Positions 9,206 through 59,279 of a DNA stretch of 64,000 nucleotides are shown here, in pieces. Every line of letters starts with the position of its first letter. Position 1 is the first letter of the stretch. The notes beneath the pieces were generated by a model, which saw only the letters and a list, made by a program, of their open reading frames with translations, did not search any database and was not told where the DNA came from. The DNA lies in the NCBI GenBank assembly GCA_965661685.1, contig CBFIET010000175.1, positions 20,160-84,159 of the forward strand, read 5' to 3'. A program made the translations under genes and the position numbers. This stretch comes from Planctomycetota bacterium (lineage in GTDB: Bacteria > Planctomycetota > UBA8108 > UBA1146).

Positions 9206-10726
9206 TCAGGGACAGGGATCTTCAAAAATAGTGAAGTCGCAATCGAGGAGATCCGGTGTCTGGTCGTTGCCACACCCAAGGAATGGGGGTGGCAATGGAT
9301 CGCCTGAACCGAAGAGGAAGGCGAGCAGTGAAATAGGGTCGGAAAGATCCAGAAGTGCGTCGTCGTTACAATCTGCGGTATCGAGGCAGGATGGGAGAGT
9401 CGAACCTGGATTGAAGAACCCCCCGAGAATCTCGATCACATCCGCGAGGTTGATCATCGAGTCGCCGTTCGCATCCCCTCGTCCAAAGTCTGGCCGGAAG
9501 GGCTCACCCTGGAAGTATTCGATGGAGTTGCTGCCTACACAGGAAATGACTGCATCCAGTACTCCGTCATTGTTGATATCCGTCACCTTCAAGCAAGTGG
9601 GATCATCAGGCAGCGAATAGGAACTGATTCCATCGAAGGGGATCCCATCGAGACCGTACCCTTTCAACACACTGAAGGTGGCACTGGAGGGATTGGAGAG
9701 GAAGAGCAGGTCCGCGGATCCTTCGCTCTCTGCATCTAACTTTGCGACGGTCAGGTCCAGGGCATTCACCACTTCATCTTCGTATCCCGTCACCGGATCC
9801 ATGAAAAGACCGGTATCTGTCCCCTGGAAAAAGACCAACGAATCTCCAGCAGTGGGAATACAGACCATATCCAGAATCTCAACCCCATCGGGTGTTTCCT
9901 GTAAGATGTCGACCAGTATCAACTCCTCTGCCACGTAGGAAATCGCTGTCTCCTGAATCAGCACCATTCCATCAATTCCCTCGTTGGAATAGACTCGCAC
10001 GCTGTCTCCTGCCAGGACCATATCGATGTCTGAATCGCCATTCAAATCACCGAAAGCTGCTGCGTTTGCTGGCGGGAACAAGGTGCTACTCAGATTGTAA
10101 TTTCCCGATCCATCCGAGAGCATCAGCCTCGTCTCTCCACCTCCAACGAACCCCGCAAGGGTCAAGATAATCAGATCCTCATACTGATCTCCATTGAGGT
10201 CAGCCATTTCCACTGAGGTGACAAAACCCACGCCCAGAAGTAATGCTTCTGGAGGAGCGAAGGTGCCGTCGCCAAGTCCCTGAATCAAATCAACCGTGCC
10301 GTCAACGTATGTCACGATCACATCGAATACATCGTCCTGGTCGAACTTGATCAGGAGGCCACCGGCTGGCTCGCTCGACAGCGCCATCGAACTTATCGGG
10401 GTCGTAGAAAACGTCTCCCCAGGATTCCCCAGAAACACCTCGAAGCGATACGGATCGAGGGACAGGACGATCAGATCCTGCTCTCCATCCAGGTTGGTGT
10501 CACAGACCATCATGTCCAACGGTTCAGCAGACACGGGCACGCTTTGAATCGGGAGGAAGTAACCCGAACCCAGTCCTTCTGGAACCTGGGAACTGGCAAC
10601 GGAATCAAAAGAACTAACAAAGAGTAGTACCACGGCAAGATGGAAGATCCTCGACACCGAGAATTTCTCCACCCACCAACGGTGCGAGTTTGAATACTTC
10701 ACGAAGTTGTACGAATTCGATCTCAT
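9206..10726 (-). CDS. Secreted FG-GAP/VCBS beta-propeller protein with a C-terminal dockerin-like Cys-rich module
   Basis: FG-GAP-type loops DLNGDQYEDLII, DLNGDSDIDMVLAG, DINNDGVLDAV. C-terminus DANGDSMINLADVIEILGGFF...CLDTADCNDDALLDLSDPISLLAFLFGSG...CGNDQTPDLLDC. The exact start is uncertain; a GTG (VEKFSV...) just before the signal peptide is possible. Confidence 0.75.
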   Translation of the reverse strand: MRSNSYNFVKYSNSHRWWVEKFSVSRIFHLAVVLLFVSSFDSVASSQVPEGLGSGYFLPIQSVPVSAEPLDMMVCDTNLDGEQDLIVLSLDPYRFEVFLGNPGETFSTTPISSMALSSEPAGGLLIKFDQDDVFDVIVTYVDGTVDLIQGLGDGTFAPPEALLLGVGFVTSVEMADLNGDQYEDLIILTLAGFVGGGETRLMLSDGSGNYNLSSTLFPPANAAAFGDLNGDSDIDMVLAGDSVRVYSNEGIDGMVLIQETAISYVAEELILVDILQETPDGVEILDMVCIPTAGDSLVFFQGTDTGLFMDPVTGYEDEVVNALDLTVAKLDAESEGSADLLFLSNPSSATFSVLKGYGLDGIPFDGISSYSLPDDPTCLKVTDINNDGVLDAVISCVGSNSIEYFQGEPFRPDFGRGDANGDSMINLADVIEILGGFFNPGSTLPSCLDTADCNDDALLDLSDPISLLAFLFGSGDPLPPPFLGCGNDQTPDLLDCDFTIFEDPCP

Positions 10727-10912: not shown

Positions 10913-11017
10913 ATGACAGGAAAGTCAGGTCAGGAGGAAATCACTTCGCCCTTGACCCCTCACGAACGACTTCACAAAGTGTCCTTACGTTTTGCTCCTC
11001 TTTCAGTTAGGAACCCC

Positions 11018-12466
11018 GTGATCCAGATCAACAAGGTCAATTTCCCTGGCTCAGCGCTTGTCCTTCTTCTCGTAAGCCTGCTCGGCTGTGGAGGTGGGGA
11101 AGATCCTCTACCCCCCATCAGCTCCATCTTTGCCCTGAATCCTGGAGACGAGGCCACAGTCGATGGCTGGGTCACGGTTCTCCCGGGAGCCTTCGAGAGC
11201 AGCACCGCAGATGCGGGGTTCGCCCTCCAGGACGAAACGGGAGCGGTCTTCATCCAGGTCGATCCGGCCCTTGCACTCGACCTCAGTACTCTGAATCTGG
11301 GGAATTCGATCCGGGTTCGAGGAATCGTCAGCGAGTTCAACCAGATGGTGACGCTGACCATCGATGAGATCGGCGATTTGACCTTCAACGGAGGTGGCGG
11401 ATTCATCTTCTTCCCCATCGATCTGAGCACCGGAGACATCGACAACACCGCAACAACTCCCGAGAACATCGCCAGCATCGTCCGGTTGAATGGATTCATC
11501 CAGGTGGATCCCGTTGGTGGGGTCGACACCGTGGTCAGGGAGGAGTCGGTCGGAGGAGATCTATTCGGCTGGAAGATCCTCCTCGATGATAGCAGCGGTA
11601 TAGGTCAAACCTACTGGCATCCGACCGCCAATCTCGACCCTGAGATTCTCACCTTTCTCGATGCCGGTAGAAATCTAGAGGTGAGCGGATTTCTCAATCG
11701 TAATGTCGACACTTTCGAGGTGTTTCCTCGGGGAAACTATGACATCTCCATCTCGATTCCCGATGCAAGGGCGATGACTGCCGGGCAAACCGGGTTCGTG
11801 CGAGGTGTCGTCGGTCTCCCTGCCGATTCCCTCTACCCCACGGGAGAGTACGGTTTTTCCCTGCACGAGGAAAATGGCACCGGCATCTTTGTCCAGATCA
11901 GCGACCCCAACCTCAGCATGAAGAACTTCGAGGGGGGATTGATGACTGCATCTGAACTGGGGTACATCGTCAACCTCCACTCCATCGGTCTCTATCCTCC
12001 GGTGAGAGTGCATGTCGAGGGTGTGATCACCGAGACCACCGGTGGCGATCGCGTGATCGTGCCAGGGGACGGCCAGGTTCGCCTCGTCTCCCTACCGCTG
12101 GCCTTTCCTCCGTCGGCGGCGTACGCCACCGGAGCCTTGACCCCGGCGGAGTTCGGGCGGCTGGTGAGTGTTTCAGGAATTCTGGATCCTCCTCCCCCTG
12201 GTGGTAACAGTGGAACGAATGGATGGACGTCGGTTCTGGGTGGCTTCCGTGCTCGCCTCGACGATGGCTCGGGGGGAGTCAATGTCTTCCTGCCCAGCGC
12301 GGTAATCGATCCATTCGGCTCAGGAGCGGATTTCCTCACCGACGTCATCACATATCCGATCGGAGTCACCATCGGCGCACCACTGTCGGTGACAGGATTC
12401 CTGCGCCACTTCGACGGAGATTACGAGATCGTGGTTCTCTACAACCAGACCGGATTCATCGACTGA
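11018..12466 (+). CDS. Lipoprotein with three internal OB-fold-like repeats; function unknown
   Basis: Proposed GTG start with AGGAA 6 nt upstream, giving M-IQINKVNFPGSALVLLLVSLLGC (lipobox). Three roughly 150-aa repeats begin GFALQDETGAVFIQVD, GFSLHEENGTGIFVQISD and GFRARLDDGSGGVNVFLPS. The track ORF start 10913 would add 35 non-signal residues. Confidence 0.6.
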   Translation: MIQINKVNFPGSALVLLLVSLLGCGGGEDPLPPISSIFALNPGDEATVDGWVTVLPGAFESSTADAGFALQDETGAVFIQVDPALALDLSTLNLGNSIRVRGIVSEFNQMVTLTIDEIGDLTFNGGGGFIFFPIDLSTGDIDNTATTPENIASIVRLNGFIQVDPVGGVDTVVREESVGGDLFGWKILLDDSSGIGQTYWHPTANLDPEILTFLDAGRNLEVSGFLNRNVDTFEVFPRGNYDISISIPDARAMTAGQTGFVRGVVGLPADSLYPTGEYGFSLHEENGTGIFVQISDPNLSMKNFEGGLMTASELGYIVNLHSIGLYPPVRVHVEGVITETTGGDRVIVPGDGQVRLVSLPLAFPPSAAYATGALTPAEFGRLVSVSGILDPPPPGGNSGTNGWTSVLGGFRARLDDGSGGVNVFLPSAVIDPFGSGADFLTDVITYPIGVTIGAPLSVTGFLRHFDGDYEIVVLYNQTGFID

Positions 12467-12579: not shown

Positions 12580-15500
12580 ATGACCCCTGCATTTCTGATC
12601 CCCATCCTCCTTTCCGCTCACATGATGCAATCCGACCCACCCGATCTCGTTCCTGGAAAACAGATCCCCCAGTGGGAAGTCCTTCACTACCAGAAGGATG
12701 GTGAGAAGCAGCAGGCGACAGTGCATTACCAGATGTTTCTTCCATCCTTCTTCGAGAAGGGTGAACCGTTACCCCTGATGTTGTTTCTTCACGGAGCAGG
12801 GGAACGCGGCAAGGATCTCGATGATGTCAAGAAGTGGGGACCTCCTCGATTTCTCGCCGATCGCCCTGATTTTCCATTCATCGTCGTTTCACCCCAGTGC
12901 CCCCGAGGGCAGTGGTGGGATATCGAAGTACTCGTCGCGCTGCTCGATAAGTTGGAGAGTACCTTCGCCATCGATCCCGACGCGATCGTGGTGACCGGAC
13001 TGAGCATGGGTGGCTACGGAGCCTGGAGCCTGGCGGCGGCGCAACCCGATCGATTTGCCGCCATCGCTCCCATCTGCGGAGGAGGCGATCCGGCCACTGC
13101 TGGACGGTTGGTCGATCTTCCCATCTGGAACTTTCACGGATCCGATGATCGTGTCGTTCCTGAGCGGAAGTCCCTCGATATCGTCGAGGCGATCCGCGCT
13201 GCCGGCGGGACCCGGATCAAGCACACATCCTACGCGGGGGTCGCCCACGAGTCGTGGCGGATCGCCTACCAATCGGATGCGCTGTGGAGGTGGCTCCTCG
13301 CCCAGCGAAGGGGCTCCGATGCGGAGCCGATGGTGTCGGAACAGCGACTCGCCGAGGCGGGAACCAATCGACCGCAGATGGAGAGGGCCCTCAGCAGCGG
13401 ATCGGCGGATCAGCGCAAGGCGATGCGGTGGCTCGTCGAGCAGATGCCAGTCACCGACCTCCAGCTCCTCGACAGCGAGTTCCTCATCGAGAACGTGAAT
13501 CTGGCGGTGAAATCGAGAGATTCCTCGCCGTGGGATCTCGAGATCCCCGAGGAGATCTTCCTCGATGGGGTCCTTCCCTATGCCAGCATCAACGAGAGGC
13601 GCGATCGCTGGAGAGCGGATTTCCGCAACAGGTTTCTACCCCTGATAGAGGATACCGACTCCCCCTCGGAGGCGGCAGCCAGGTTGAATCAAAAGGTGTT
13701 TGGCCTGGTCGGCGTGAAGTACTCGACGAAACGTCCCAAGGCGGATCAGAGTCCCTACGAATCGATGGAATCGGGTCTCGCTTCCTGCACCGGTCTGTCG
13801 GTGATTCTGGTCGACGCCTGTCGGTCGGTCGGGATCCCCGCCAGATTCGTCGGGACTCCGCTGTGGTCCGATGGCTCGGGCAATCACTCGTGGGTAGAGA
13901 TCTGGGATGACGGCTGGCACTTCACCGGCGCTGCAGAGCCGACGGGAGACGAACTGAACCGTGCATGGTTCACGGGCCGGGCGTCGGGGGCTTCCCGTGA
14001 AGATCCTCGCAACGCCGTCTATGCCGTGACCTGGAACGACTCCCCCATCACCTTTCCGATGATATGGGCACCAAACAACTCAACGGTCGGTGCCACCGAT
14101 GTGACGGACCGCTACGCCACCCCACCGGAGCCTGCGAAGGACGTCAGTGCAGCGGTTCGATTCCGTATCACCGAGGGGAAGGAAGGGGCGCGTTGTGTCG
14201 CCACGATCCGGGTACTCGGTGGCGGCGGGGAGGTTCTCTTCGAGGGTGAGAGTCGGGATGAGAGTTTTGATGCCAATGATCATGTCACCGCCGAGTTGAA
14301 GGCCGATCAGAAGGTGATCGTCGTCGCTCAGAACGAAACCTCGAGTCTGGTGGTATCGATCCAGGTGAACAAGGGTGAGCAACTGGTCGAACTCGACCTG
14401 ACTCCGCGCTCTTCTGAAGATCACTCCGCAGAAGTGATCGCATCACTGGGGGCGATCTATTCCATCTGTGGTGCCGAGGTCGATCTGGAGCAGTTTCCCA
14501 TCAGTTCGGTGCCGCTGACGAAGATCGATGCTCAGGTTGCGGCTTCGATGGTCTGGCACTCCCACGCCAGCGTCATCGCCAGCGGTCGCATCGAGGAGAT
14601 GACCAGTCGTGTACTCACCCTGGGCGAGCTGAAGATGCCATTCTGGTACGAGGTGAAGGGTCCTGCTCCACAGAAGGGACGAAGCCTGTGGATCTCGATG
14701 CACGGTGGAGGAGGTGCGCCCGCCGAGGTCAACGATCAGCAGTGGGACAATCAGAAGCGACTCTACCGCCCGGAAGAGGGGGTCTACCTCGCTCCTCGGG
14801 CACCGACCAACAGCTGGAACATGTGGCACCAGGGGCACATCGATCAGTTCTTTGACCGACTGATCGAGAACCTCATCGTTTTCGAGGGTGTCGATCCTGA
14901 CCGCGTTTACATCCTGGGTTACTCGGCGGGAGGAGATGGAACCTATCAGATCGGTCCCCGCATGGCGGACCGTTGGGGTGCCGTCGCAATGATGGCGGGG
15001 CATCCAAACGATGCTCGCCCAGACAGTCTCCGCAACACTCCGTTCACCCTGCACATGGGAGGCAAGGACGAACCTTACAACCGCAACGGTCAGGCAGTGA
15101 TCTGGCAAGAAAAACTCCACAAGTTGCAGGAAGAGGATCCGGCCGGTTACCCCCACTGGGTCAAGATCTACCCCGACAAGGGGCACTGGATGGATCGCGA
15201 GGATCGAGCCGCCATTCCATGGATGGCGAAGAACTCACGCAATCTGCGACCAAGTCGAGTCGTCTGGCAACAAGACGACGTGACCACCAAACGTTTCTAC
15301 TGGCTCCAAGATGACGAACCGGTCGGTAGAAGTCGAATCGTCGCCGAGATCGACGGTCAGAAGATCAACATCGTCGAAGCTCCTGCCGGGACTCGACTCA
15401 CCCTTCGTCTCGACGATTCGATGATCGACCTCGATGCACCGATCATCGTCGAGCATGGAGACCGCGTACTCTTTGAAGGATCGATCGATCGGACCATCTC

Positions 15501-15597
15501 GACGATTGCCCGGACGATGGGGGAACGGGGGGATCCGGTCGGGATCTTCCATGCCGAGATCACCGTCGAGTTTCCGTCGAAGGAAACCTCGCAGTAG
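12580..15597 (+). CDS. Large secreted multidomain protein: N-terminal alpha/beta-hydrolase esterase, central transglutaminase-like cysteine-protease core, C-terminal second alpha/beta-hydrolase esterase
   Basis: N-terminal domain LMLFLHGAGERG...GLSMGGYGAWSL...FHGSDD. Central domain GLASCTGLSVILVDACRSVGIPARFVG...GNHSWVEIWDDGWHF (Cys/His of the transglutaminase-like fold). C-terminal domain LWISMHGGGG...ILGYSAGGDG...AMMAGHPND. Confidence 0.75.
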   Translation: MTPAFLIPILLSAHMMQSDPPDLVPGKQIPQWEVLHYQKDGEKQQATVHYQMFLPSFFEKGEPLPLMLFLHGAGERGKDLDDVKKWGPPRFLADRPDFPFIVVSPQCPRGQWWDIEVLVALLDKLESTFAIDPDAIVVTGLSMGGYGAWSLAAAQPDRFAAIAPICGGGDPATAGRLVDLPIWNFHGSDDRVVPERKSLDIVEAIRAAGGTRIKHTSYAGVAHESWRIAYQSDALWRWLLAQRRGSDAEPMVSEQRLAEAGTNRPQMERALSSGSADQRKAMRWLVEQMPVTDLQLLDSEFLIENVNLAVKSRDSSPWDLEIPEEIFLDGVLPYASINERRDRWRADFRNRFLPLIEDTDSPSEAAARLNQKVFGLVGVKYSTKRPKADQSPYESMESGLASCTGLSVILVDACRSVGIPARFVGTPLWSDGSGNHSWVEIWDDGWHFTGAAEPTGDELNRAWFTGRASGASREDPRNAVYAVTWNDSPITFPMIWAPNNSTVGATDVTDRYATPPEPAKDVSAAVRFRITEGKEGARCVATIRVLGGGGEVLFEGESRDESFDANDHVTAELKADQKVIVVAQNETSSLVVSIQVNKGEQLVELDLTPRSSEDHSAEVIASLGAIYSICGAEVDLEQFPISSVPLTKIDAQVAASMVWHSHASVIASGRIEEMTSRVLTLGELKMPFWYEVKGPAPQKGRSLWISMHGGGGAPAEVNDQQWDNQKRLYRPEEGVYLAPRAPTNSWNMWHQGHIDQFFDRLIENLIVFEGVDPDRVYILGYSAGGDGTYQIGPRMADRWGAVAMMAGHPNDARPDSLRNTPFTLHMGGKDEPYNRNGQAVIWQEKLHKLQEEDPAGYPHWVKIYPDKGHWMDREDRAAIPWMAKNSRNLRPSRVVWQQDDVTTKRFYWLQDDEPVGRSRIVAEIDGQKINIVEAPAGTRLTLRLDDSMIDLDAPIIVEHGDRVLFEGSIDRTISTIARTMGERGDPVGIFHAEITVEFPSKETSQ

Positions 15598-16836: not shown

Positions 16837-18258
16837 TCAGTCGACCCTCTGAAGAGTCAGTTGCCCATCGATCGCCAGCGGGACGATTCCCTGTGCGGGA
16901 TCCGCCACCACCAGTAGATCATTGGAAGTGTTGGTGACCGGAGTATCCTCGACCCATGTCAACGGAGTCACCACCGGTCCAGCGACACCGATGAACGCCG
17001 ACTCGACGGTGTTGTAATCTACCGATACCAGCTCCGTCTCCACCGGGAACTGCAAGATCGTCAACTCGGTGAAGGAGAAGATCGCTCCCACGATGATCTC
17101 ATCGCTCTCCAGTTGGGTAGTCCAGAAGGTCGGACCGGTTCCTGAATTGAGTCCCTGGATGATGGGTGCAGCGGTGACGGCAGACGCTTCGAGAAGCAGC
17201 GGATCGTGGGCCATTGCAAAGTTGAATCCTGCCAGCCAGGTGGGATAGGTCGGGTTTCCTGAATCCTCTTCCAGGGACAGCCCTACCTGCGCCTGCCCGA
17301 TTCCTGTGATTCCGGAAAAGGTGCCCGTTGCCGAACTCACGCTGTAGGTAAAGACCGGATCAATTCGGATCCGTAGATCGAATGCGGTTGATCCCGAGAC
17401 ATTGGAGGCAGTGATGGTGTGAGTGGCATCGTAACCCTCCTCCGTTGCCATTCCCGAGATGACTCCGCTCGATGCATCGATCTGTATTCCCGTTGGAAGT
17501 GGAGGAGTGATTTGCCACAGAGCAACGGGTCCACAGTTGACCGAGGGTGACAGCGGAGTGAGAGAAACATTCGCCGGTACGATGACGAAATCCACCGCAT
17601 AAGTCAGGTTACATGGAGCCTGTGGATTGATCAGGATGTTGATGGTGAAGGTGGTCGAGCCGAACGCACTGGAAGCCGTGATGATATGGTCGGTGGCGGC
17701 AGTGGCCAGGGTGGGTGTGCCTGAGATGGTGCCATCCGCCGGAGAAATCGATAGCCCCGTCGGAAGTGCCGGAGCGACAGCCCAGTCGCTGACCACACCA
17801 CAACCGGTAGTGGGAACCAACGGGGTCAGAACCTCTCCTACCGTCAATACGAGGGCGGAGGAGGAATACTGCAGATCACAGGGTCCCTCCGGATTGATCA
17901 AGATGTTGATGGTGAAGGTGGTCGATCCGGTGACGTTGGAGGCAGTGATGATGTAGTCAGTGGCGGCAGTGGAGGTGGTAGGGATTCCAGAGATGGTGCC
18001 ATCCGCCGGAGAAATCGACAGCCCAGCCGGAAGTGCTGGATCGACGGCCCAGTCGCTGGCCACGCCGCAACCGGTGGTGGGGACCAGCGGAATCAGACTC
18101 TCCCCGACCGTCAAGACGACGACCGCAGAGGAATACAGAAGATCACATGGAGCTTCCGCCGTGGAGGACGAACCACCGCTGCCACAGCCACTCAACAGAA
18201 GCAAACTCAACACGATTCCCGAAGTTCGACGGATCAAGACAACACCTCCAACCACCAC
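16837..18258 (-). CDS. Cell-surface lipoprotein with three tandem putative-Ig (dystroglycan/cadherin-like) domains and a C-terminal domain
   Basis: Lipobox LLLLSGCGSG. Three 89-aa units each contain TGLSISPADGTISGTPT and end INILINP. Confidence 0.7.
   Translation of the reverse strand: MVVGGVVLIRRTSGIVLSLLLLSGCGSGGSSSTAEAPCDLLYSSAVVVLTVGESLIPLVPTTGCGVASDWAVDPALPAGLSISPADGTISGIPTTSTAATDYIITASNVTGSTTFTINILINPEGPCDLQYSSSALVLTVGEVLTPLVPTTGCGVVSDWAVAPALPTGLSISPADGTISGTPTLATAATDHIITASSAFGSTTFTINILINPQAPCNLTYAVDFVIVPANVSLTPLSPSVNCGPVALWQITPPLPTGIQIDASSGVISGMATEEGYDATHTITASNVSGSTAFDLRIRIDPVFTYSVSSATGTFSGITGIGQAQVGLSLEEDSGNPTYPTWLAGFNFAMAHDPLLLEASAVTAAPIIQGLNSGTGPTFWTTQLESDEIIVGAIFSFTELTILQFPVETELVSVDYNTVESAFIGVAGPVVTPLTWVEDTPVTNTSNDLLVVADPAQGIVPLAIDGQLTLQRVD
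17350..18150. repeat. 267-bp tandem repeat array (three copies) inside the Ig-domain gene
   Basis: Copies 1 and 2 are about 80% identical at the protein level; copy 3 is more diverged. The plus-strand ORFs 17627..17956 and 17960..18616 are near-duplicates of each other, reflecting the same DNA repeat. Confidence 0.7.
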
Positions 18259-27630: not shown

Positions 27631-30600
27631 TTGAGATCTGTTTGCTTCGTACTGGTGATGGCGTTTCTCACCGTACTACCCATCGGGTGTACCGGTCCTG
27701 ACGATTCACCATCGAAACAGATGCTGGATCTCCATCTTCTCGGCTTGAATTTTCTCTCTCAGCACAAGTTTGAAGATGCAGAGAAGACCCTTCAGCAACT
27801 GGTGAATGAAGCGCCTTCCGCCTTCGTCCCCCGCTTCAACCTGGCGATTGCGCAGTTGAATCAAGCGGAAAAAGGTGTCAAAAATGCGCTGCTGAACCTG
27901 CAGGCCGCAGATCGACTGAAGCCAGACTCTGCCCGCGTTCACTACTGCATCGGCATCATCGAACGATTCAATGGAAACGAAGAAGCCGCTCTGAGCTCCT
28001 TCCAGCGGGCACTTCATCTGGCAGCGCGCGACGCAGACTGCCATTACCAGGTTGCCATCGGACTGCTGAGAAGCGGCAAGAACTCGGAAGCACTTCCCCA
28101 TTTCGAGATGGCGGTACAACTCGATCCAACAATTCGAGGCGCATGGAACAACCTGCAACTTGCCTGGCGGCGGACTGGACAGAAAGAAAAAGCAGACGAA
28201 GCACTGGCTACCTTTCGAGAACTGGAATCAACCGGCAGGGGAAGAGCTCACAGCACCAAGTACACCGAGCAGGGAAAGATCGCCGAAGCAATTCGAGACT
28301 GGTCTCCAGCGAGGACCATCGGACCGGCTCCGAAGTGCAAGATGATGGAACCGGTTCTGATTTCAGGTGCAGTGGATGGCGAATTTCCGCCGTATTCCCT
28401 CGTTGATCTCGACCTCGACTGTATTGCTGATCTGTGGATCGCCGGCTCGAAGCCAGTGGTCTACGATCTCACCGAGGCCCCGAAAATCATCGAGTCCACC
28501 CTCCCCCTTCATGACTCCACCTGCTTCGCCGTCGGGGATGTCGATGAGGATGGAATCCCCGATCTGGCCGTCTCTGATCCCTCGTCGGTGAAAATCTACC
28601 GTGGCAAGGAGGGGCGTAATCCTGATTTCTCTGAACTGATCTCAACGGTCGATGTCAGTTGCTCCGATCTGATGCTCGCGGATATCGACATGGAGGGAGA
28701 CCTCGACCTACTGCTAGCGGGTTCCCGATCGGTGAGTCTGGCCCTCAATGAGGGAAGGCAGTTTCGATCACTGGCTGACTCCCCTTCCCTTTCCAGCAGC
28801 AGCACTGCACACACCATCGTCGCTGTTCGAGATCTCGATGGAGATCATGACCCCGATCTACTGGTAAACGGGGAGACCCTCTTGTGGATTGCCGGGGCTC
28901 CACAGTGGAAATTCGAGGAAAGTCCGGCCGACCGCCCACTGATCGGTAGCGGAGAACTGAAGCCTCAATCGGTAGTGCTCGTCGACCTGGTCGGCGACAA
29001 CCGTTCCGAACTTGTCGCGCTGGAGAACTCCAGGGTGAAAATCTATCGACGCTCCGCTTCCAGCACTTCGGAAGCCGGCAAGGCCATCTTCGAGGGTTCA
29101 GTGCCAGTGCCCTCCGAGATACTCGGCCAATCCTACTCTCAGCTTGCCGCAGTGGATCTCGATCTCGACGGCCAGCAGGAACTCCTGCTTCTGAACCCAG
29201 ATCGTACCTCGATCCTCTACAACAGCGCAGGAGTCCTCGAGCTGTCAACTTCCACCCTTCCGGGTGCGGTGAATGTTCTCGCTGCTGATGTCGATGGAGA
29301 TGGTGACCTCGATCTTGTCTTTCAGAAACAAGACGGTTCTCTGTGGCTCTCCAGAAATCAACTGGAGAAGGAAACGAACCAGCCACACTCGTTTCGTGCT
29401 CACCTCGGTGGGCGCAGGGATGGTGACGACCGTCGTACCAACCTTCTCGGTTTCGGTGCTCGACTGGAATTGAGGAATTCAAATCACTCGGTGCTGGCAT
29501 TCCAGGAGGGAAGCCGGGGCCACCGTTCCCGTGGCTTGCTACCGGTGATTGTCGGTACAGGATCCGCCACCCTGCTCAGCAGCCTCATCATCGACTGGCC
29601 CGATGGAGTTCTTCAGGGGGAGATCGATGTGGAACTCGATCGATGCCAGCAGATCGAAGAGGTGCAACGAAAGTCCTCCTCATGTCCGGTTCTCTTCACC
29701 TTTGACGGTCAGAGCTGGAACTTCATCACCGATTTCATGGGTGGAGGAGGGCTCGGTTTCTGGGTCGGACCCGACGAATATGCCCCTCCGGAACCGACCG
29801 AGGTGGTGCGCATCGCCCCCGAGTCTCTGAGACCTGTGGGAGATCGGCTGTTGCTCAGCATCATGGAACCGATGCAGGAGATCTGCTACGCCGATCGCCT
29901 GGCACTGCTGGCGGTCGATCATCCCGGCGAGACATCCTGCTACCCCGAGGAGTTCTTCCCCATCCAGGCGGCCCCCCCTTCGGGAGATCCGATGTTGCTA
30001 CAGCGAAGTTCACGAATCTTTCCTGCGTCGATTCGAGATGCTAGCAGTGAACTGGCGGTGGAGACGATTCTCGAGGTCGATCGCAAGTACGCAGGGCCCC
30101 GGGCGTTGGTTCCCGATCATGTAGGGTACTGTGAAGACCAGGTTTGGGAGTTCTCTTTCGATGAGGTGCCGACAGGGGATCAGATTGCACTGTTTCTCGA
30201 TGGCTGGGTGGAGTATCCGTACTCCCGCATCAACTTTGCAGCATGGCAGGGCGACAAGAGGTTACAGGCTCCAACATTTCGCTACCGAGGCTCCGATGAC
30301 GAACCGTGGCAACTACTCTGCCAGGAGCTGGGATACCCAGCGGGGATGCCCAAGACGATGGTTCTCGATGTCTCCGATATCATCTCTCGTGGAGCTCGTC
30401 AGATTCGAATCGAATCAAACCTGGAGCTCTACTGGGATCGGATCTTTCTGGCACCAGTCGCCGCTCCGTCACCACGCCAGATCCATTCCATCCCCATCCA
30501 CTCCGCAACGATGCGAGATGGAGGCTATCCGAGGGAGTACAGCGATGACGGCGAACTACCCGCCACCTACCACTACGAGGAGCGAGATCCAACTCTTGAT

Positions 30601-30933
30601 TACCGCCCGATGGAACGAGGTCATGTCACTAGCTACGGCGAGGTGAAAGAACTTCTTGAAACTGCCGATGATCGTTTCGTCATCATCGGCGGAGGAGATG
30701 AATTGCTGATCGAGTTCGATGCTTCGCAACTTCCGGAACTTCCGGCCGGATGGCAGCGGACCTGGCTCCTCGACACCTTTGGCTGGTGCAAGGATCTCGA
30801 TCCGTTGACGGGGGCTCGCAGTAGCGTCGGTCCGCTACCCTTCCGCGGCATGAGCCAGTATCCCCCGGCTGCTGACGATCGTGCTCCAGACAGAAGCCGC
30901 TACCAGAACCAGTGGAACACCCGGCGCGACTAG
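27631..30933 (+). CDS. 1100-aa secreted protein: N-terminal TPR repeats, FG-GAP/VCBS propeller repeats, large conserved C-terminal domain (possibly CRTAC1 / ASPIC-UnbV-like)
   Basis: Signal MRSVCFVLVMAFLTVLPIGC. TPR-like helices in the first ~180 aa. Loops DVDEDGIPDLAVSD, DIDMEGDLDLLLAG, DLDGDHDPDLLVNG, DVDGDGDLDLVF. Confidence 0.7.
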   Translation: MRSVCFVLVMAFLTVLPIGCTGPDDSPSKQMLDLHLLGLNFLSQHKFEDAEKTLQQLVNEAPSAFVPRFNLAIAQLNQAEKGVKNALLNLQAADRLKPDSARVHYCIGIIERFNGNEEAALSSFQRALHLAARDADCHYQVAIGLLRSGKNSEALPHFEMAVQLDPTIRGAWNNLQLAWRRTGQKEKADEALATFRELESTGRGRAHSTKYTEQGKIAEAIRDWSPARTIGPAPKCKMMEPVLISGAVDGEFPPYSLVDLDLDCIADLWIAGSKPVVYDLTEAPKIIESTLPLHDSTCFAVGDVDEDGIPDLAVSDPSSVKIYRGKEGRNPDFSELISTVDVSCSDLMLADIDMEGDLDLLLAGSRSVSLALNEGRQFRSLADSPSLSSSSTAHTIVAVRDLDGDHDPDLLVNGETLLWIAGAPQWKFEESPADRPLIGSGELKPQSVVLVDLVGDNRSELVALENSRVKIYRRSASSTSEAGKAIFEGSVPVPSEILGQSYSQLAAVDLDLDGQQELLLLNPDRTSILYNSAGVLELSTSTLPGAVNVLAADVDGDGDLDLVFQKQDGSLWLSRNQLEKETNQPHSFRAHLGGRRDGDDRRTNLLGFGARLELRNSNHSVLAFQEGSRGHRSRGLLPVIVGTGSATLLSSLIIDWPDGVLQGEIDVELDRCQQIEEVQRKSSSCPVLFTFDGQSWNFITDFMGGGGLGFWVGPDEYAPPEPTEVVRIAPESLRPVGDRLLLSIMEPMQEICYADRLALLAVDHPGETSCYPEEFFPIQAAPPSGDPMLLQRSSRIFPASIRDASSELAVETILEVDRKYAGPRALVPDHVGYCEDQVWEFSFDEVPTGDQIALFLDGWVEYPYSRINFAAWQGDKRLQAPTFRYRGSDDEPWQLLCQELGYPAGMPKTMVLDVSDIISRGARQIRIESNLELYWDRIFLAPVAAPSPRQIHSIPIHSATMRDGGYPREYSDDGELPATYHYEERDPTLDYRPMERGHVTSYGEVKELLETADDRFVIIGGGDELLIEFDASQLPELPAGWQRTWLLDTFGWCKDLDPLTGARSSVGPLPFRGMSQYPPAADDRAPDRSRYQNQWNTRRD

Positions 30934-44675: not shown

Positions 44676-44743
44676 CGCAAAGCACCTGGTCTTCTTTTAG
44701 AGTGTGCAAGAGTTCATCATCCAGGACGAAGCGGAGGCATATC

Positions 44744-46168
44744 ATGCAAGACCCCATGCAACACCCTGCGGCTACCAGAATCTTACTGCTAATTCTCCCG
44801 TGGCTACTGTTAGTTTCCTGTGGAGCCACCGCTTCGGAACAGTTTCCCCTCGGAATTCTCGGTGGGCAAGGGAAGGTTGAAGCAGGAAGCAACCTGTTGA
44901 CCATCGTCAAGGTTCATCAGGGCTCTCCGGCACAATCTGGTGGATTGCTGGCGGGGGATCGAATCCAGGGAATCGGCTCCGCCACCTTCAGCAAGCACTC
45001 TGCAAAGGTAGATGTGGGAGGTACGGGGCCGCAACGATCGCTGGGGGAAGCTCTCGACCAGATCGCCTCTCACACCGATGAAGAGCGAAGAACGATCAAC
45101 CTCTCCCTGCTCAGGGGAGAGGAAACGCTGACGATCGACGTCTCTCTCCCTCACAGGCCCACCGTCCTGTCTCCGGAAGGGCGGGCTCTCCTCGTAAAGA
45201 ATTGCGCACAGCAACTACTCTCCAGCCAGAGCAAGGGGGGACTGTGGAATGCTCCCGTCGGCTTGACCGGTGATCGCGTGCTGACCGCCTGGGCAGTGGT
45301 CGCATTGATGTCCACAGGAAACGAGGAATACCGCGAGGCCATCGATCGCGGAATCCAGTGGCTCCGTGGACCCGATGGAAATTGCTGGATCCAGGACGAC
45401 CCGCTGATCAAGGGACCGGATAACCTGGGAAACTGGGCGATCACTGCCACCGTGATGGCCCTCACCGAACACCATCTACTCAGCGGGGATCCTCTCGACC
45501 GTAGCGTCATCGAGAGGTGCTGCAAGGCGTTGAGTGCACGCATCACCGACGACGGTTTGTTTGGCCACGATGTTGTTCCCGGCTACAGCCGGAAGGGATT
45601 CAATGTCATCAACACCCTCTCCCATATGGCCTGGGCAGCCGCTTCCCAGGTGGGCATCACGCTCGATGAGAAGTCCTGGAACAGCAGTCTCGAACAGATC
45701 CGCAACTCCCTCGACAGCAATGGCGGCATCCGTTACTGGACGATGAAGGGAACCGGAACCCAGGACGCCTCACTGCGCACATCCTCCATGGCGCTCGGAC
45801 TCTCCATCGCCAGCACGGAGCAGGAACTCGCCAATACACTCGCCAAGTATCTCGCCACCCACCCGCAACGGACCAGGGAAGCTCACGCTGTAGGATCGAT
45901 GGGGATGATCCTGACACCTTCTGCATTGTGGCGACTCGATCGAGATGGTTATCAGACATTTCTCGATGAGTGGCGCTGGTACCTGGCCCTCACCCAGCAA
46001 CACGATGGTTCGATCCGCTACATCGGAGGCAAGCGGAACAACGGCGGAGATTCCTACCTGGGATTTCACAAGATCGGATGCATCATCGCGACGATGATCG
46101 TCACACCGCAACGACAGCACCTGCTGATGAATGGAAAAGCCCTGAATTCCAGCGGGAATCAGGACTAA
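44744..46168 (+). CDS. Secreted PDZ-domain protein with prenyltransferase / squalene-oxidase-like (alpha/alpha-toroid) repeats
   Basis: Signal ILLLILPWLLLVSC. PDZ VKVHQGSPAQSGGLLAGDRIQGIG. Toroid repeats GGLWNAPVGLTGDRVLTAWAVVALMSTG and NGGIRYWTMKGTG. Confidence 0.55.
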   Translation: MQDPMQHPAATRILLLILPWLLLVSCGATASEQFPLGILGGQGKVEAGSNLLTIVKVHQGSPAQSGGLLAGDRIQGIGSATFSKHSAKVDVGGTGPQRSLGEALDQIASHTDEERRTINLSLLRGEETLTIDVSLPHRPTVLSPEGRALLVKNCAQQLLSSQSKGGLWNAPVGLTGDRVLTAWAVVALMSTGNEEYREAIDRGIQWLRGPDGNCWIQDDPLIKGPDNLGNWAITATVMALTEHHLLSGDPLDRSVIERCCKALSARITDDGLFGHDVVPGYSRKGFNVINTLSHMAWAAASQVGITLDEKSWNSSLEQIRNSLDSNGGIRYWTMKGTGTQDASLRTSSMALGLSIASTEQELANTLAKYLATHPQRTREAHAVGSMGMILTPSALWRLDRDGYQTFLDEWRWYLALTQQHDGSIRYIGGKRNNGGDSYLGFHKIGCIIATMIVTPQRQHLLMNGKALNSSGNQD

Positions 46169-46284: not shown

Positions 46285-47028
46285 ATGAAACCATGGTTGA
46301 TCCTGATCGCCATCTTCACCGCCTCACTCTCCTGTTCGGCACAGGATCCGATCTTCCTTGAACTTGGAACGATCGAGTTCGATGAGATCACCGGTGAAGG
46401 CTCGGTAGAGATGATGATGACGAGCACCGTTCCCATCGCCGGATTCCAGTTCGATCTGACCTTTGACCCTACCTCGGTACAGTTGACCAGCGCTGTCGGT
46501 GGGCTTGCAGATACCTACGGATACACCGTCGGCTGGGGACCCACCACCGGAACCGTCATCGGCTACTCCCTGACACTGGTAGAGATCCCAGCCACCCTGG
46601 TTCCTGCACAACTGCTCACCGTCACCTTTACCTGCTCCTCCTGCTCCGGAACCGCTCCCGAGATCTGCATCGAAGCCCCGGTCTTTGCGGATGTGAATGC
46701 CAATGGCATCCCCACATCGATTGGTCCCTGCGATACGGCGAGTGCCCTACCTCTGTTCCTGCGAGGCGATTGCAACACCGATAGCAATGCGAACCTTGCA
46801 GATGCGATCTTCTTGCTGGCGAATCTCTTCTCTGGAGGCCCAGAAAGTGACTGCGTGGATGGGTGTGACTGTAATGACGACAACTCGCTGAATATCGCGG
46901 ATGCCATCTACTTCCTCAGTTACCTCTTCAATGGAGGTGCTCCGCCTGCACCGCCAGGAATCATCGAATGTGGACTCGACCCGACCGATGATTCCCTCGA
47001 CTGTTTGCTACCTGCGGCGTGCCCCTGA
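46285..47028 (+). CDS. Small secreted protein with an N-terminal cohesin-like domain and a C-terminal dockerin-like Cys-rich module
   Basis: Signal MKPWLILIAIFTASLSCSAQD. Cohesin-like blocks VPIAGFQFDLTFDPTSVQLTSA (compare GIANCDFVYSYDPNVLEI) and VFADVNANGI (compare GGFADNDLV). C-terminus DCNTDSNANLADAIFLLANLFSGG...CVDGCDCNDDNSLNIADAIYFLSYLFNGG...CGLDPTDDSLDC. Confidence 0.55.
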   Translation: MKPWLILIAIFTASLSCSAQDPIFLELGTIEFDEITGEGSVEMMMTSTVPIAGFQFDLTFDPTSVQLTSAVGGLADTYGYTVGWGPTTGTVIGYSLTLVEIPATLVPAQLLTVTFTCSSCSGTAPEICIEAPVFADVNANGIPTSIGPCDTASALPLFLRGDCNTDSNANLADAIFLLANLFSGGPESDCVDGCDCNDDNSLNIADAIYFLSYLFNGGAPPAPPGIIECGLDPTDDSLDCLLPAACP

Positions 47029-57443: not shown

Positions 57444-59279
57444 CTACATGCAACTCCCCTGTGTCTCTTCGCAGGAGAGCGGATCGTCGGTCGGGTCCGA
57501 ACCACAGTCGAAGGGTTCCGGCGGTGCGGCCCCCGATTGAAACAAGTAATCGAGGAGCGAAACCACATCCGAGATATCGTTCGTACCGTCGTCGTTACAA
57601 TCCACGGAATCGAGACAATCAGGTGCGGTGCCCCCTCCGAACAAGTAGAGGAGCGCCCCCACCGCATCTGCAACATCTCTATTGCCATCGTCATTGACAT
57701 CACCGCGTCGAAAACTCGATTGCGGAATGCCGACAACATAGGAACGCTCGGAGGTGGTCATGGAGTTCCCGGCGAAATCAGTAACTCGAATTCGGTAGAT
57801 GACCGTTGTGGAAAACCCGGGATCAGGAACAAGACCTCGATATAAATCGTGTCCGGACCAAGACATCGGAACGGGAGCAAACTGGGCTCCCGTCGACCAC
57901 TCCAGGATGACGGACTGAAAAAAGGCACCGTGATCGGAAGTCATGTCATCTCGAACCACGGCTCTGACGATGCTAGAGCCGCTTCCCACGAGGATATCAG
58001 GGAGTTCTTCCCAGAAAGGAACGGTCGGTGGCCGGGTATCGGCGGGTCCCTGGTTGAGATACAGGCGGTTCCTGAAGGCTCCGCTCTCCCCCTGGGCGGT
58101 TATCATGTCGAGATCGCCATCCGCATCCAGATCCCCCACCTCGACATCGAGCGAACTGTCAGACACCGACGAGATGACCCCGCCAACCAGTGTCAGGAAT
58201 CCGTTGCCGTTGTTATTCAGCATCCTCTCCGGCCCGCCGATGGCGCAGATCACCACATCGAGGTCTCCATCGTTGTCATAATCGAGAAACTTGCTGTCGT
58301 TGTCATCGATGTTCGGATTCGAGGAGTTTGGAAGCAGCGTCGAGGTCACGTTCGTGAAGGAGGCGGATCCATCATTCTGGAAGATGGCCTCCCTCGACCC
58401 CACTCCCGAGTTTGCTCCCACCACATCCAGATCTCCATCCCCGTCGAGATCACCAAGATCATAGGAATAGGTGTTGGAATCTGGAGGAAGGTTGCCGGAG
58501 GTCTCATCGGTGAAGATTCCACCCTCGTTGATGTAGAGCTTTGAATTTCCATCTCGATGTCCCTCGATCATGTCGAGGTCGAGATCTCCGTCGAGGTCTC
58601 CAAAGATGCAATCCATCGGTGCTGAAACATTTTGTAATGGCAGCCGTTGATTGGTTCCGTTGCTGTATACACCGTTTCCATCATTGACCCACAGTTGCGC
58701 CTGGCCCGATCCGAACCGGGTCGATCCGCCACGTGTATACCAGAGGTCAAGATCGCCATCGTTGTCGATGTCTCCAAAGGCGCAATGTGAACTCGACATG
58801 TTGAACTGGGGAATGCGTGTCGCAGATTCATCGGTGAAAAAACCGTTGCCATCATTGATGAGAAGTTTTTGCGGAGTGAGGAAATCATTCGCCACGGCCA
58901 TGTCGAGGTCGCCATCGCCATCGACATCACCCAGTTCTACATCTCTTCCGTATCCGATCAGGTTTCCCAGACGATTCACCGACTCGTCGGTGAATACCGC
59001 ATTACCATCGTTGATGTACAGTCGAACTCGCTGCGCCTGACCGGGCGAGGCGAATCCACTGCCGTTGGCAAAGCACAGGTCGAGATCTCCATCACCGTCC
59101 ACGTCACCGATGGCTACCTGGCTGGAATATTCGTTAAAGACCGGTAATCGGCCGTTACTCGATTCCAGAAATTGCTGCGCCTCGACGCCGCTGGATGCGC
59201 TGAATCCGATCAATACCGTCAAGAAGCAAACTGGCAGGCAATACCTCACCACACTCTCCTCCCCGATACTCCACGTCAT
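57444..59279 (-). CDS. Secreted seven-bladed FG-GAP/VCBS beta-propeller protein with Ig-like domain and C-terminal dockerin-like Cys-rich module
   Basis: Signal peptide. Seven DxDxDGDLD loops (DVDGDGDLDLCF, DVDGDGDLDMAV, DIDNDGDLDLWY, DLDGDLDLDMIE, DLDGDGDLDVVG, DYDNDGDLDVVI, DLDADGDLDMIT). C-terminus DVNDDGNRDVADAVGALLYLFGGG...CLDSVDCNDDGTNDISDVVSLLDYLF...CGSDPTDDPLSC. Confidence 0.75.
   Translation of the reverse strand: MTWSIGEESVVRYCLPVCFLTVLIGFSASSGVEAQQFLESSNGRLPVFNEYSSQVAIGDVDGDGDLDLCFANGSGFASPGQAQRVRLYINDGNAVFTDESVNRLGNLIGYGRDVELGDVDGDGDLDMAVANDFLTPQKLLINDGNGFFTDESATRIPQFNMSSSHCAFGDIDNDGDLDLWYTRGGSTRFGSGQAQLWVNDGNGVYSNGTNQRLPLQNVSAPMDCIFGDLDGDLDLDMIEGHRDGNSKLYINEGGIFTDETSGNLPPDSNTYSYDLGDLDGDGDLDVVGANSGVGSREAIFQNDGSASFTNVTSTLLPNSSNPNIDDNDSKFLDYDNDGDLDVVICAIGGPERMLNNNGNGFLTLVGGVISSVSDSSLDVEVGDLDADGDLDMITAQGESGAFRNRLYLNQGPADTRPPTVPFWEELPDILVGSGSSIVRAVVRDDMTSDHGAFFQSVILEWSTGAQFAPVPMSWSGHDLYRGLVPDPGFSTTVIYRIRVTDFAGNSMTTSERSYVVGIPQSSFRRGDVNDDGNRDVADAVGALLYLFGGGTAPDCLDSVDCNDDGTNDISDVVSLLDYLFQSGAAPPEPFDCGSDPTDDPLSCEETQGSCM

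Follow-up and report, generated by a model that had tools for sequence, protein, structure and literature searches.

A cysteine-rich, probably dockerin-type module on three predicted secreted proteins of a Planctomycetota bacterium, and candidate cohesin-like partners

The high-affinity pairing of cohesin and dockerin is the textbook protein "plug and socket" of cellulosomes and is commonly employed in synthetic biology. To our knowledge, the role of such pairs outside cellulolytic anaerobes is largely unknown. Dockerin-like modules are reportedly widespread outside cellulosomes, many of them without a demonstrated cohesin partner. A non-cellulosomal cohesin-dockerin assembly, the "Planctosome", was hypothesized for freshwater Planctomycetes of the Nemodlikiaceae (Andrei et al., 2019; PMC6461901); it is proposed to tether peptidases and binding domains to the cell surface and includes an adaptor that carries a dockerin as well as a cohesin. 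In dockerins, an "intramolecular clasp" was described, in which positions -3 to -1 before loop 1 contact C-terminal residues, often by aromatic-proline stacking; these contacts stabilize the fold in its Ca2+-bound state as well as the binding of cohesin (Slutzki et al., 2013; PMC3821032).

The window analyzed here, a stretch of 64,000 nucleotides from a Planctomycetota bacterium (contig CBFIET010000175.1), encodes three proteins, A, B, and C, that share a C-terminal module of about 90 residues (Table 1). This module is probably a divergent type-I-like dockerin, neither a catalytic domain nor a cleaved signal, for which cohesin binding and a cellular location at the surface are inferred. Protein A starts with a hydrophobic, signal-peptide-like segment and protein C with a signal-peptide-like N-terminus, both judged by eye. 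Ahead of the module, protein A contains FG-GAP_3 repeats (Pfam, E 1.8e-16), and protein C contains FG-GAP/FG-GAP_3 repeats (FG-GAP_3 E 5.7e-42) and a further domain without a Pfam match. Protein B is conserved at about 250 aa in Planctomycetota MAGs. The three genes, and a gene for a predicted lipoprotein discussed below, are dispersed in the window without a common operon.

Table 1. Module-bearing genes and cohesin-like candidates in the window
Feature	Position	Strand	Remarks
Gene A	9206..10726	-	506 aa; C-terminal module
Dockerin-Cys module, protein A	9209..9487	-	Residues 414-506; 5 Cys; Ca2+ loops DANGDSMINLAD and DCNDDALLDLSD; tail PLPPPFLGCGNDQTPDLLDC..DPCP
Candidate receptor/anchor	16837..18258	-	473 aa; predicted lipoprotein; without dockerin module
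C-terminal divergent cohesin-like domain of 16837..18258	16840..17370	-	Residues ~297-473; phmmer match to L045
Gene B	46285..47028	+	247 aa; signal peptide, N-terminal domain, then module
N-terminal domain, protein B	46345..46749	+	Residues 21-155; about 135 aa; probably divergent cohesin ("VPIAGFQFDLTFDP")
Dockerin-Cys module, protein B	46756..47025	+	Residues 158-247; 7 Cys
Gene C	57444..59279	-	611 aa; C-terminal module
Dockerin-Cys module, protein C	57447..57713	-	Residues 523-611; 5 Cys

A sequence-only reading had proposed a single C-terminal module common to the three proteins. All three open reading frames exist, and a phmmer search with each module against all 901 six-frame ORFs of the window recovered both remaining copies, with E-values from 1e-16 to 1e-21; the next-best match had E >0.01, and a fourth copy was not found among these ORFs. 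A family HMM built without the window copies scored A, B, and C at 4e-31 to 1e-37 (protein C, 1.3e-37). Chance or low-complexity similarity among the modules is ruled out by these pairwise and HMM values. The modules measure 89-93 aa, with 47% pairwise identity and 33 invariant columns. Their alignment, described earlier as free of gaps, is nearly so, with indels of one to three residues in the tail and in the linker that joins the repeats. The boundaries given for the module needed revision: its true start, the conserved F(-3) that opens F-x-R-G-D, lies 8-19 residues further upstream, and the interval assigned in gene A had cut off the first Ca2+ loop.

Identification of the module as a dockerin is based on both sequence and predicted fold. 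It contains two duplicated F-hand Ca2+ loop-helix segments, the defining trait of type I dockerins, and all six loops of A, B, and C retain D1, N/D3, D5, D/N9, and D12. Across the family, loop 1 keeps D1 in 606, N/D3 in 608, D5 in 559, and D12 in 626 of 628 modules, and loop 2 is similar. A comparison with Pfam Dockerin_1 (PF00404), which had been recommended earlier, gave matches at E <0.01 for 65 of 100 family members (best E 3e-9); the window copies A and B scored 15.8 and 15.9 bits, below the gathering threshold of 22.9 bits, and copy C had no match at E <=1. When the family profile was searched against the PDB, cellulosomal dockerins were recovered (2y3n_B, 6.8e-7; 1daq, 1.4e-6), over profile positions 28-84 only.

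An AlphaFold2 (AF2) model of the copy B module (pLDDT 94.9, pTM 0.85) places helices at residues 15-27, 35-38, and 48-60 and shows the dockerin fold, in which a short helix connects two antiparallel ones, with the two Ca2+ loops in place. In a Foldseek search of the PDB with this model, ranks 1-31 were all dockerins, with probabilities up to 1.00, TM-scores by target of 0.64-0.79, and rmsd of 1.6-3.8 Å over 55-73 columns; the small size of the domain kept the E-values to a modest 0.01-0.5. The module is predicted to bind Ca2+. The two dockerin-like repeats recognized in the sequence-only reading are thus upheld by family-level Pfam matches, PDB matches to type I dockerins, and the predicted fold.

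The cysteine pattern differs in several points from the one first drawn. About six conserved Cys had been counted, all after the repeats; four are conserved family-wide (C1 in 122/123, C2 in 108/122, C3 in 119/121, and C4 in 107/111), to which some copies add an optional pair and a lone Cys, and C1 is located in the linker between the two repeats. The seven Cys of protein B correspond to the four core residues, the optional third pair (GDC..DGC), and the "DCNDD" Cys. C2, C3, and C4 belong to a proline-rich family tail of about 30 residues, PPxP[F/G]PxC-G-x-D-P-T-x-D-x-L-x-C-x5-C-P, for which no match was found in Pfam, NCBIfam, or the PDB. Both C1 and C3 occur in 361 instances, neither in 14, and one without the other in 28; the corresponding figures for C2 and C4 are 163, 215, and 25. 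These counts were taken over related sequences, and Fisher p-values therefore overstate their independence. The co-occurrence leads to the prediction of two disulfides, C1-C3 and C2-C4, which would form within the module. For protein B, a further bridge is predicted between Cys163 and Cys194. In the copy B model, DSSP assigns isolated bridge residues at exactly F2, C34 (C1), G74 (beside C2), and C84 (C3). The earlier concern that the module might prove to be a canonical dockerin whose Cys pattern dissolves once more sequences are aligned was not realized, the four Cys being conserved and co-varying in pairs.

Selenocysteine at the conserved Cys positions was considered because six family members matched the NCBIfam model "Omp28-related selenoprotein"; the match was absent from the ten longest members, and a scan of 121 loci for TGA read-through revealed only ordinary stop codons after C4.

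The "DCNDD" Cys, which had been presented as part of the shared pattern, is rare (6/123 and 20/628 modules). It is an odd residue on Ca2+ loop 2 without a co-varying partner, and copies A and C each have an odd number of Cys. A covalent role might be envisaged, in which intermolecular disulfides, notably through this lone Cys of A and C, join secreted proteins in a cross-linked network outside the cell, with the dockerin fold serving only to pre-orient the partners. The unpaired residue itself and the alternating dockerin-cohesin arrays described below, which suggest polymer formation, speak for such a matrix. The four conserved Cys, however, pair inside the module according to their co-variation, and proteins A and C possess further Cys upstream of the module that could pair with the lone one. 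At about 3% of modules the lone Cys is rare and therefore cannot explain the family, and a matrix of this kind appears extremely unlikely.

The family is far wider than the three proteins, a restriction to which had been named in advance as an argument against a modular system. A profile search yielded 53,963 cluster representatives at a cut-off of E <=1e-3. The stricter cut-off of E <=1e-30 left 2,372, nearly all from Planctomycetota MAGs and on diverse cargo, and about 45 MAGs carry many copies per genome. The module is also present in complete Planctomycetota genomes, such as OZ244999.1 (9.18 Mb). The cargo includes FG-GAP, subtilase, astacin, LPMO, PETase-like, Kelch, and beta-helix proteins, and mostly does not consist of glycoside hydrolases. 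Among 161 genomic copies, at loci located with a degenerate DNA pattern based on the tail, 125 terminate no more than 8 aa before the stop codon, often closing with "...C-P-stop".

This position, the very diverse cargo, and a choice-of-anchor Q domain found directly upstream of the module in one family member would all suit a C-terminal sorting or processing signal, recognized by dedicated machinery and then removed or covalently attached, as with the T9SS CTD, PEP-CTERM/exosortase, or LPXTG/sortase systems. Like these sorting domains and the choice-of-anchor domains, the module is a C-terminal unit common to unrelated secreted proteins. Unlike them, it also occurs internally, directly after signal peptides, and in tandem arrays of up to seven, and this internal and N-terminal occurrence argues against a cleaved signal. 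It also has no transmembrane helix or basic tail and is predicted to be a compact, folded Ca2+-binding domain. No sortase, exosortase, or rhombosortase-like gene, or other linked processing enzyme, was seen among the scanned neighbors of the three genes; PEP-CTERM, LPXTG, and T9SS CTD models of NCBIfam and Pfam had no match in A, B, or C, and the module falls below the cut-off of the most similar NCBIfam anchoring-domain model (dockerin_GC). A sorting signal is thus very unlikely. Of the initial description as a sorting or anchoring tag rather than a catalytic domain, the anchor-like usage is retained, and the sorting option, with its sortase or exosortase, is not.

The search for a cognate receptor, also suggested earlier, led to a divergent cohesin-like family that is fused to the module or encoded near it. 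The profile of this family had cohesins as its top 14 PDB matches (5lxv_A, 2.6e-5), and matched 1g1k_A at 1.5e-4 over 130 positions. Against Pfam Cohesin (PF00963, gathering threshold 24.1 bits), member L106 reached 27.1 bits and member L067 21.1 bits. A search of 5.8 billion proteins with the same profile gave only 12 matches, none with a precomputed Pfam domain, and so provides no independent support for the cohesin assignment. At the module loci, 31 of 36 cohesin-like ORFs also carry the module. Module and cohesin-like domain are joined in 72 of the top 150 representatives, a list biased toward multi-copy proteins, most often as Doc-Coh-Doc; Coh-Doc and Coh-Coh-Doc architectures were seen as well.

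These fusions bear on a cohesin-independent reading, according to which the module is a Ca2+-stabilized, disulfide-locked stability or adhesion domain that is directed to a surface glycan, peptidoglycan, the S-layer, or a substrate, or that merely stabilizes secreted proteins in seawater. It is favored by the prevalence of non-cellulosomal dockerin-like modules without known partners, by the lack of a cohesin-like domain in about 80% of the module-bearing ORFs at the loci, and by the divergence of the window's cohesin-like domains, too great for Pfam. The strong fusion association with the cohesin-like family opposes it, as does the almost perfect internal duplication of both helices and loops, a trait of cohesin-binding dockerins. 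We consider cohesin independence rather unlikely, and a dockerin that binds divergent cohesins remains the preferred interpretation.

Two candidate sockets occur in the window. The predicted lipoprotein encoded at 16837..18258 has a lipobox (LLSG|C, residues 21-25) and three He_PIG Ig-like domains (E 1.5e-21), and phmmer aligns it with the cohesin-like domain of L045 (E 3.5e-15); searched alone against Pfam Cohesin, it gave no match at E <=0.1. The N-terminal domain of protein B is probably also a divergent cohesin, on sequence evidence that is weak to moderate. Cohesin was its top Pfam match, below significance (E 0.073, 13.7 bits), and its family (A4) aligned with the cohesin-like family (A6) in hhalign with a probability of 62.8% (E 7.1e-5, 97 columns). 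The domain joined the cohesin-like HMM only at the third iteration (9e-6). A PDB profile search with it found no cohesin, the sole match being a spurious D-aminopeptidase (E 0.11), and the AF2 model of full-length protein B, from a 10-sequence alignment, was unusable (pLDDT 31.7).

A mechanism can be proposed from these features. The proteins would be exported by Sec and oxidized outside the cytoplasm. The two duplicated F-hand segments would form the usual dockerin core, onto which the proline-rich tail would fold back, to be locked by the disulfides between the linker C1 and C3 and between C2 and C4, as a covalent version of the non-covalent clasp of cellulosomal dockerins. The module would then plug its cargo into divergent cohesins of the same genome; in the window, this cargo would be two FG-GAP beta-propellers and a small cohesin-like protein. 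The predicted lipoprotein, with its three Ig spacers, would act as a membrane anchor whose C-terminal domain is the likely socket, and the N-terminal domain of protein B would probably be a second one, making protein B a Coh-Doc adaptor.

More tentatively, these parts may belong to a large, previously undescribed cohesin-dockerin "construction kit" of Planctomycetota whose members self-assemble into a polyvalent protein network outside the cell or on its surface; we view this as a possibility with the balance still against it. Disulfide-locked dockerins and divergent cohesins, strung as Coh-Doc, Coh-Coh-Doc, or Doc-Coh-Doc-Coh-Doc, may build the network, and lipoprotein-borne cohesins may anchor it while it displays adhesins, peptidases, and polymer-degrading enzymes. 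It may constitute a counterpart to the cellulosome in a non-cellulosomal setting, one adapted to oxidizing environments, and in some copies the lone loop-2 Cys might even make docking covalent. The window offers a testable set of parts from one Planctomycetota genome: three plugs with their defined cargo, one candidate Coh-Doc adaptor, and one candidate lipoprotein-anchored socket. If the pairing is true, it would explain how peptidases and other secreted enzymes, along with FG-GAP adhesin-like proteins, are retained at the surface, and protein engineering would gain new docking pairs that are orthogonal and tolerate oxidation.

The two predicted disulfides and the proline-rich clasp are stability features absent from the literature and libraries searched, and the literature search yielded no paper on a disulfide-stapled Planctomycetota dockerin or on a "GC-type dockerin". 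The latter term derives from the NCBIfam model NF041540, "GC-type dockerin domain-anchored protein", which is a curated model of a dockerin-like anchoring domain at the C-terminus. Its positions 11-64 of 67 align with the core that the two repeats form in protein B, and the model ends before the CGxDPTxDxLxC tail. Membership in this group was rejected: protein B scores 15.9-17.7 bits against a cut-off of 29, A and C have no match, and only 5 of 100 family members match at E <0.01.

Compared by description, the "Planctosome" comprises Pfam-recognizable cohesins and dockerins in one freshwater family, with a giant LTD-anchored protein, and the available parts of its account do not mention a Cys-stapled tail, a disulfide pattern, a lipoprotein anchor, or Doc-Coh-Doc arrays (PMC6461901). 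The clasp offers a structural likeness, as the conserved F(-3) and the PPxP tail of the module are positioned analogously; the module differs in its covalent lock, predicted by co-variation only, and in an extension of 30 residues instead of a few (PMC3821032). Cellulosomal type I dockerins (PF00404; 1daq, 2ccl_B, 2y3n_B, 4uyq_B) share with the module the two tandem Ca2+ loop and helix segments of about 22 residues, the loop pattern D-x-[ND]-x-D-G-x-x-[DN]-x-x-D, the same three-helix fold as predicted by the model, a mostly C-terminal position on diverse secreted cargo, and the association with cohesin-like domains. The module departs from them in its additional Pro/Cys tail and linker Cys, with two predicted disulfides; in window copies that score under the Pfam threshold; in its hosts, which are Planctomycetota, many from seawater according to MAG names, instead of anaerobic cellulolytic Firmicutes; and in its largely non-glycoside-hydrolase cargo, often organized in Doc-Coh-Doc arrays.

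Three proteins encoded in the window, A, B and C, share a C-terminal dockerin-Cys module, and this shared module is a real feature. The ORFs are as the sequence-only reading described them, with 47% pairwise identity and 33 invariant columns over the last ~94 residues. The alignment, which had been called gapless, is nearly so, with indels of 1-3 residues found only in the linker and tail. Among the 901 six-frame ORFs that the window contains, phmmer with each module recovered its two counterparts (E 1e-16 to 1e-21) and no further ORF below E 0.01, and the three scored 4e-31 to 1e-37 against a family HMM built without window sequences. This similarity is far beyond chance; a fourth copy was found in the window by neither phmmer nor the family HMM. 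The module starts at a conserved Phe three residues ahead of the first loop (F-x-R-G-D) and so extends somewhat further than first proposed, the earlier interval for gene A omitting the first Ca2+ loop.

Coordinates of the module-bearing genes, the candidate receptor and neighbouring genes in the window
Feature	Coordinates	Strand	Description
Gene A	9206..10726	(-)	506 aa ORF
Module of A	9209..9487	(-)	starts at conserved Phe
Gene B	46285..47028	(+)	247 aa ORF
Module of B	46756..47025	(+)	starts at conserved Phe
Gene C	57444..59279	(-)	611 aa ORF
Module of C	57447..57713	(-)	starts at conserved Phe
Candidate receptor	16837..18258	(-)	predicted lipoprotein; lipobox, three He_PIG, C-terminal divergent cohesin-like domain
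Cohesin-like domain of candidate receptor	16840..17370		
PDZ + DUF6288 protein	44702..46168	(+)	directly upstream of gene B; weak squalene-hopene-cyclase-like signal
OB-fold protein	10913..12466	(+)	517 aa; adjoins gene A; tRNA_anti-codon match; no module
Hydrolase	12580..15597	(+)	1005 aa; adjoins gene A; alpha/beta-hydrolase (DLH/S9-like) fused to transglutaminase-like core; no module
TPR protein	27631..30933	(+)	1100 aa; TPR + FG-GAP (as in A and C) + UnbV_ASPIC; no module

Taken singly, the window copies are weak for curated models or missed by them. Pfam Dockerin_1 (PF00404, threshold 22.9 bits) gave 15.8 bits for A, 15.9 bits for B and no match for C, and NCBIfam dockerin_GC matched B only (15.9 bits, cut-off 29). 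At the family level, dockerin identity is clear. The three copies retrieved 174 relatives, mostly short metagenomic fragments, the named ones coming from Planctomycetota MAGs, and 65 of the 100 sequences in the family alignment (A2) matched Dockerin_1 at E<0.01. The best solved relatives of the A2 profile are cellulosomal type I dockerins (2y3n_B, 6.8e-7; 1daq, 1.4e-6), with PDB dockerin matches spanning profile positions 28-84 only. An AlphaFold2 model of copy B, built with A2 (pLDDT 94.9, pTM 0.85), has helices at 15-27, 35-38 and 48-60, and Foldseek against the PDB placed dockerins at all of ranks 1-31 (TM by target 0.64-0.79). Liganding positions 1, 3, 5, 9 and 12 are kept in all six window Ca2+ loops and likewise across the family. 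At family level, the two EF-hand-like repeats noticed at first reading read as dockerin repeats, and the module would fold round two Ca2+ ions.

What the module adds to a canonical dockerin is a tail of ~30 residues, for which no match was found in Pfam, NCBIfam or the PDB. Its consensus is PPxP[F/G]PxC-G-x-D-P-T-x-D-x-L-x-C-x5-C, often ending C-P-stop. About six conserved Cys had been claimed; four are conserved, and they persist as more sequences are aligned: C1, which lies in the inter-repeat linker (122/123), C2 (108/122), C3 (119/121) and C4 (107/111). Over 565 module instances, C1 and C3 were both present in 361, both absent in 14 and discordant in 28, and C2 and C4 were both present in 163, both absent in 215 and discordant in 25; the instances are related sequences, so p-values overstate independence, yet the pattern is stark. 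Because the Cys co-occur in these pairs, we infer two disulfides: C1-C3 would tie the tail down onto the core, C2-C4 would form a closed loop inside the tail, and together they would lock the folded module. In the copy B model, DSSP assigns isolated bridges at F2, C34 (C1), G74 (next to C2) and C84 (C3), consistent with a tail packed against the linker and N-terminal Phe. An optional third Cys pair, at position 2 of loop 1 and the residue preceding loop 2, co-occurs in 68 instances (discordant 24, absent 536) and is carried by protein B.

The Cys of the 'DCNDD' motif is common to all three window copies and rare in the family (20/628). Because it has no co-varying partner among the 628 modules, copies A and C hold an odd number of Cys. 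This lone residue, at position 2 of Ca2+ loop 2 (A Cys453, C Cys561; model position 64), might remain a free thiol or enter an intermolecular disulfide; that the module is a covalent cross-linker acting through it seems very improbable. Six of the 100 A2 members (metagenomic fragments) match NCBIfam NF045500 'Omp28-related selenoprotein' (best E 1.2e-14); no TGA read-through was seen when the conserved Cys positions were scanned for it.

The module is not confined to the three proteins. When 1.84 billion cluster representatives were searched exhaustively with the profile, 53,963 matched at E<=1e-3, 28,255 at 1e-10 and 2,372 at 1e-30, the weaker of which will include ordinary dockerins. At least 118 stretches of species-representative genomes match a degenerate DNA pattern that encodes only the tail motif CGxDPTxDxLxC; from these and three protein-B contigs, the HMM found the full-length module in 117 loci. 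Among the matches listed, these loci are spread over about 45 MAGs, almost all under a Planctomycetota, Planctomycetia or Pirellulales label and a handful under another or no phylum label; the MAG OFTM36 has at least 13. Full-length modules also occur in QNYK01, labelled Bacillota (L013, L024, L032, L089), which has cohesin-like domains as well, in JAFMMO01, labelled Proteobacteria (L010, L079, L083), and under the labels Ignavibacteria (L022, L088) and Zixiibacteriota (L052); either the labels or the binning could be at fault, or the module may truly extend past Planctomycetota.

The 64 complete ORFs carry diverse cargo (FG-GAP, subtilase, astacin, LPMO_10, PETase-like, Kelch, beta-helix, CE2, fn3, TIG), and in one fragment a choice-of-anchor Q domain immediately precedes the module. 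Among the matches listed, a stop codon lies within 8 residues of the module end in 125 of 161 genomic modules. The 4-Cys variant predominates at C-termini (128/163 there), and a 2-Cys variant that keeps just C1 and C3 predominates at internal positions. In top representatives there are 2-7 full copies, which directly follow a signal peptide, lie internally or stand in tandem, and a few proteins have up to 12 dockerin repeats without the tail. This wider placement argues against a cleaved sorting signal, and the sorting tag offered by the sequence-only reading is improbable; with this option, the Cys count and the boundaries corrected, that interpretation is essentially supported.

A cohesin-like receptor had also been envisaged, and a candidate family was found. 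A cohesin-like signature, GWSFGVxHDPxxL, occurs in the N-terminal domain of several small module-bearing proteins, three of which, used as seeds, recovered a family (alignment A6, 31 sequences) that includes the C-terminal domain of the candidate receptor (E 3.5e-15). The top 14 PDB matches of its profile are all cohesins (5lxv_A, 2.6e-5; 1g1k_A, 1.5e-4 over 130 positions). Against a Pfam Cohesin gathering score of 24.1 bits, one member scores 27.1 bits and a second 21.1 bits; because most members have no Pfam match, and no relative in a set of 5.8 billion proteins has a precomputed Pfam domain, A6 is regarded, on profile comparison, as a divergent cohesin family. Two co-conserved Cys in most members ('GWSFGVCHDP' ... 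'FCxxxGxPPV') probably form an intradomain disulfide; the window domain has neither ('FNFAMAHDP', 'LTWVEDTPV'). Lacking a dockerin but bearing a canonical lipobox (LLSG|C) and three Ig-like domains of the He_PIG type (E 1.5e-21), the candidate receptor has a layout that would fit a membrane-anchored socket. The N-terminal domain of protein B is probably a more divergent member: its top match is Pfam Cohesin (E 0.073), hhalign against A6 gave 62.8% probability (E 7.1e-5), it enters the family at the third HMM iteration (9e-6), and a PDB search with it was negative. Gene B and the PDZ + DUF6288 gene are a conserved pair, found also on independent metagenomic contigs, where the PDZ + DUF6288 gene lies at L001:33-1457 and L002:99-1004.

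In the module loci, 31 of 36 cohesin-like ORFs also carry the module (Doc), as Coh-Doc (15), Coh-Coh-Doc (9), Doc-Coh-Doc (4) or Coh3-Doc (2). Both domains are combined in 72 of the top 150 representatives, most commonly as Doc-Coh-Doc (45). Alternating proteins (P0154, P0196, P0202 and 69 other top representatives; L037, L043, L053, L080 and other loci) take the forms Doc-Coh-Doc, Doc-Coh-Doc-Coh-Doc and Coh-Coh-Doc, P0154 being a complete SP-Doc-Coh-Doc-Coh-Doc protein; they may point to self-assembling networks. We know of no such alternation in cellulosomal scaffoldins. On balance we favour a reading in which A, B and C, with N-terminal signal peptides judged by eye, would be exported by Sec, and the Ca2+-bound, disulfide-locked module would dock cargo onto cohesin-like domains of anchors (the predicted lipoprotein) and B-type Coh-Doc adaptors, the specificity and location of such docking being presumed. 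A cohesin-independent role in stability or adhesion is a less likely reading.

Dockerins and cohesins outside cellulosomes, Planctomycetes included, were reportedly catalogued by Peer et al. in 2009 (cited in PMC6461901), and a cohesin/dockerin 'planctosome' has been hypothesised for freshwater Nemodlikiaceae (PMC6461901); a Planctomycete docking system is thus already known as an idea. No description was found in Pfam, NCBIfam, the PDB or searchable literature of the Cys-stapled tail, the predicted C1-C3/C2-C4 topology, the 2-Cys and 4-Cys variants, the A6 family or alternating Doc-Coh arrays. In cellulosomal dockerins, positions -3 to -1 and the C-terminus are held together non-covalently by an 'intramolecular clasp' (PMC3821032), of which the arrangement predicted here would resemble a covalent version.
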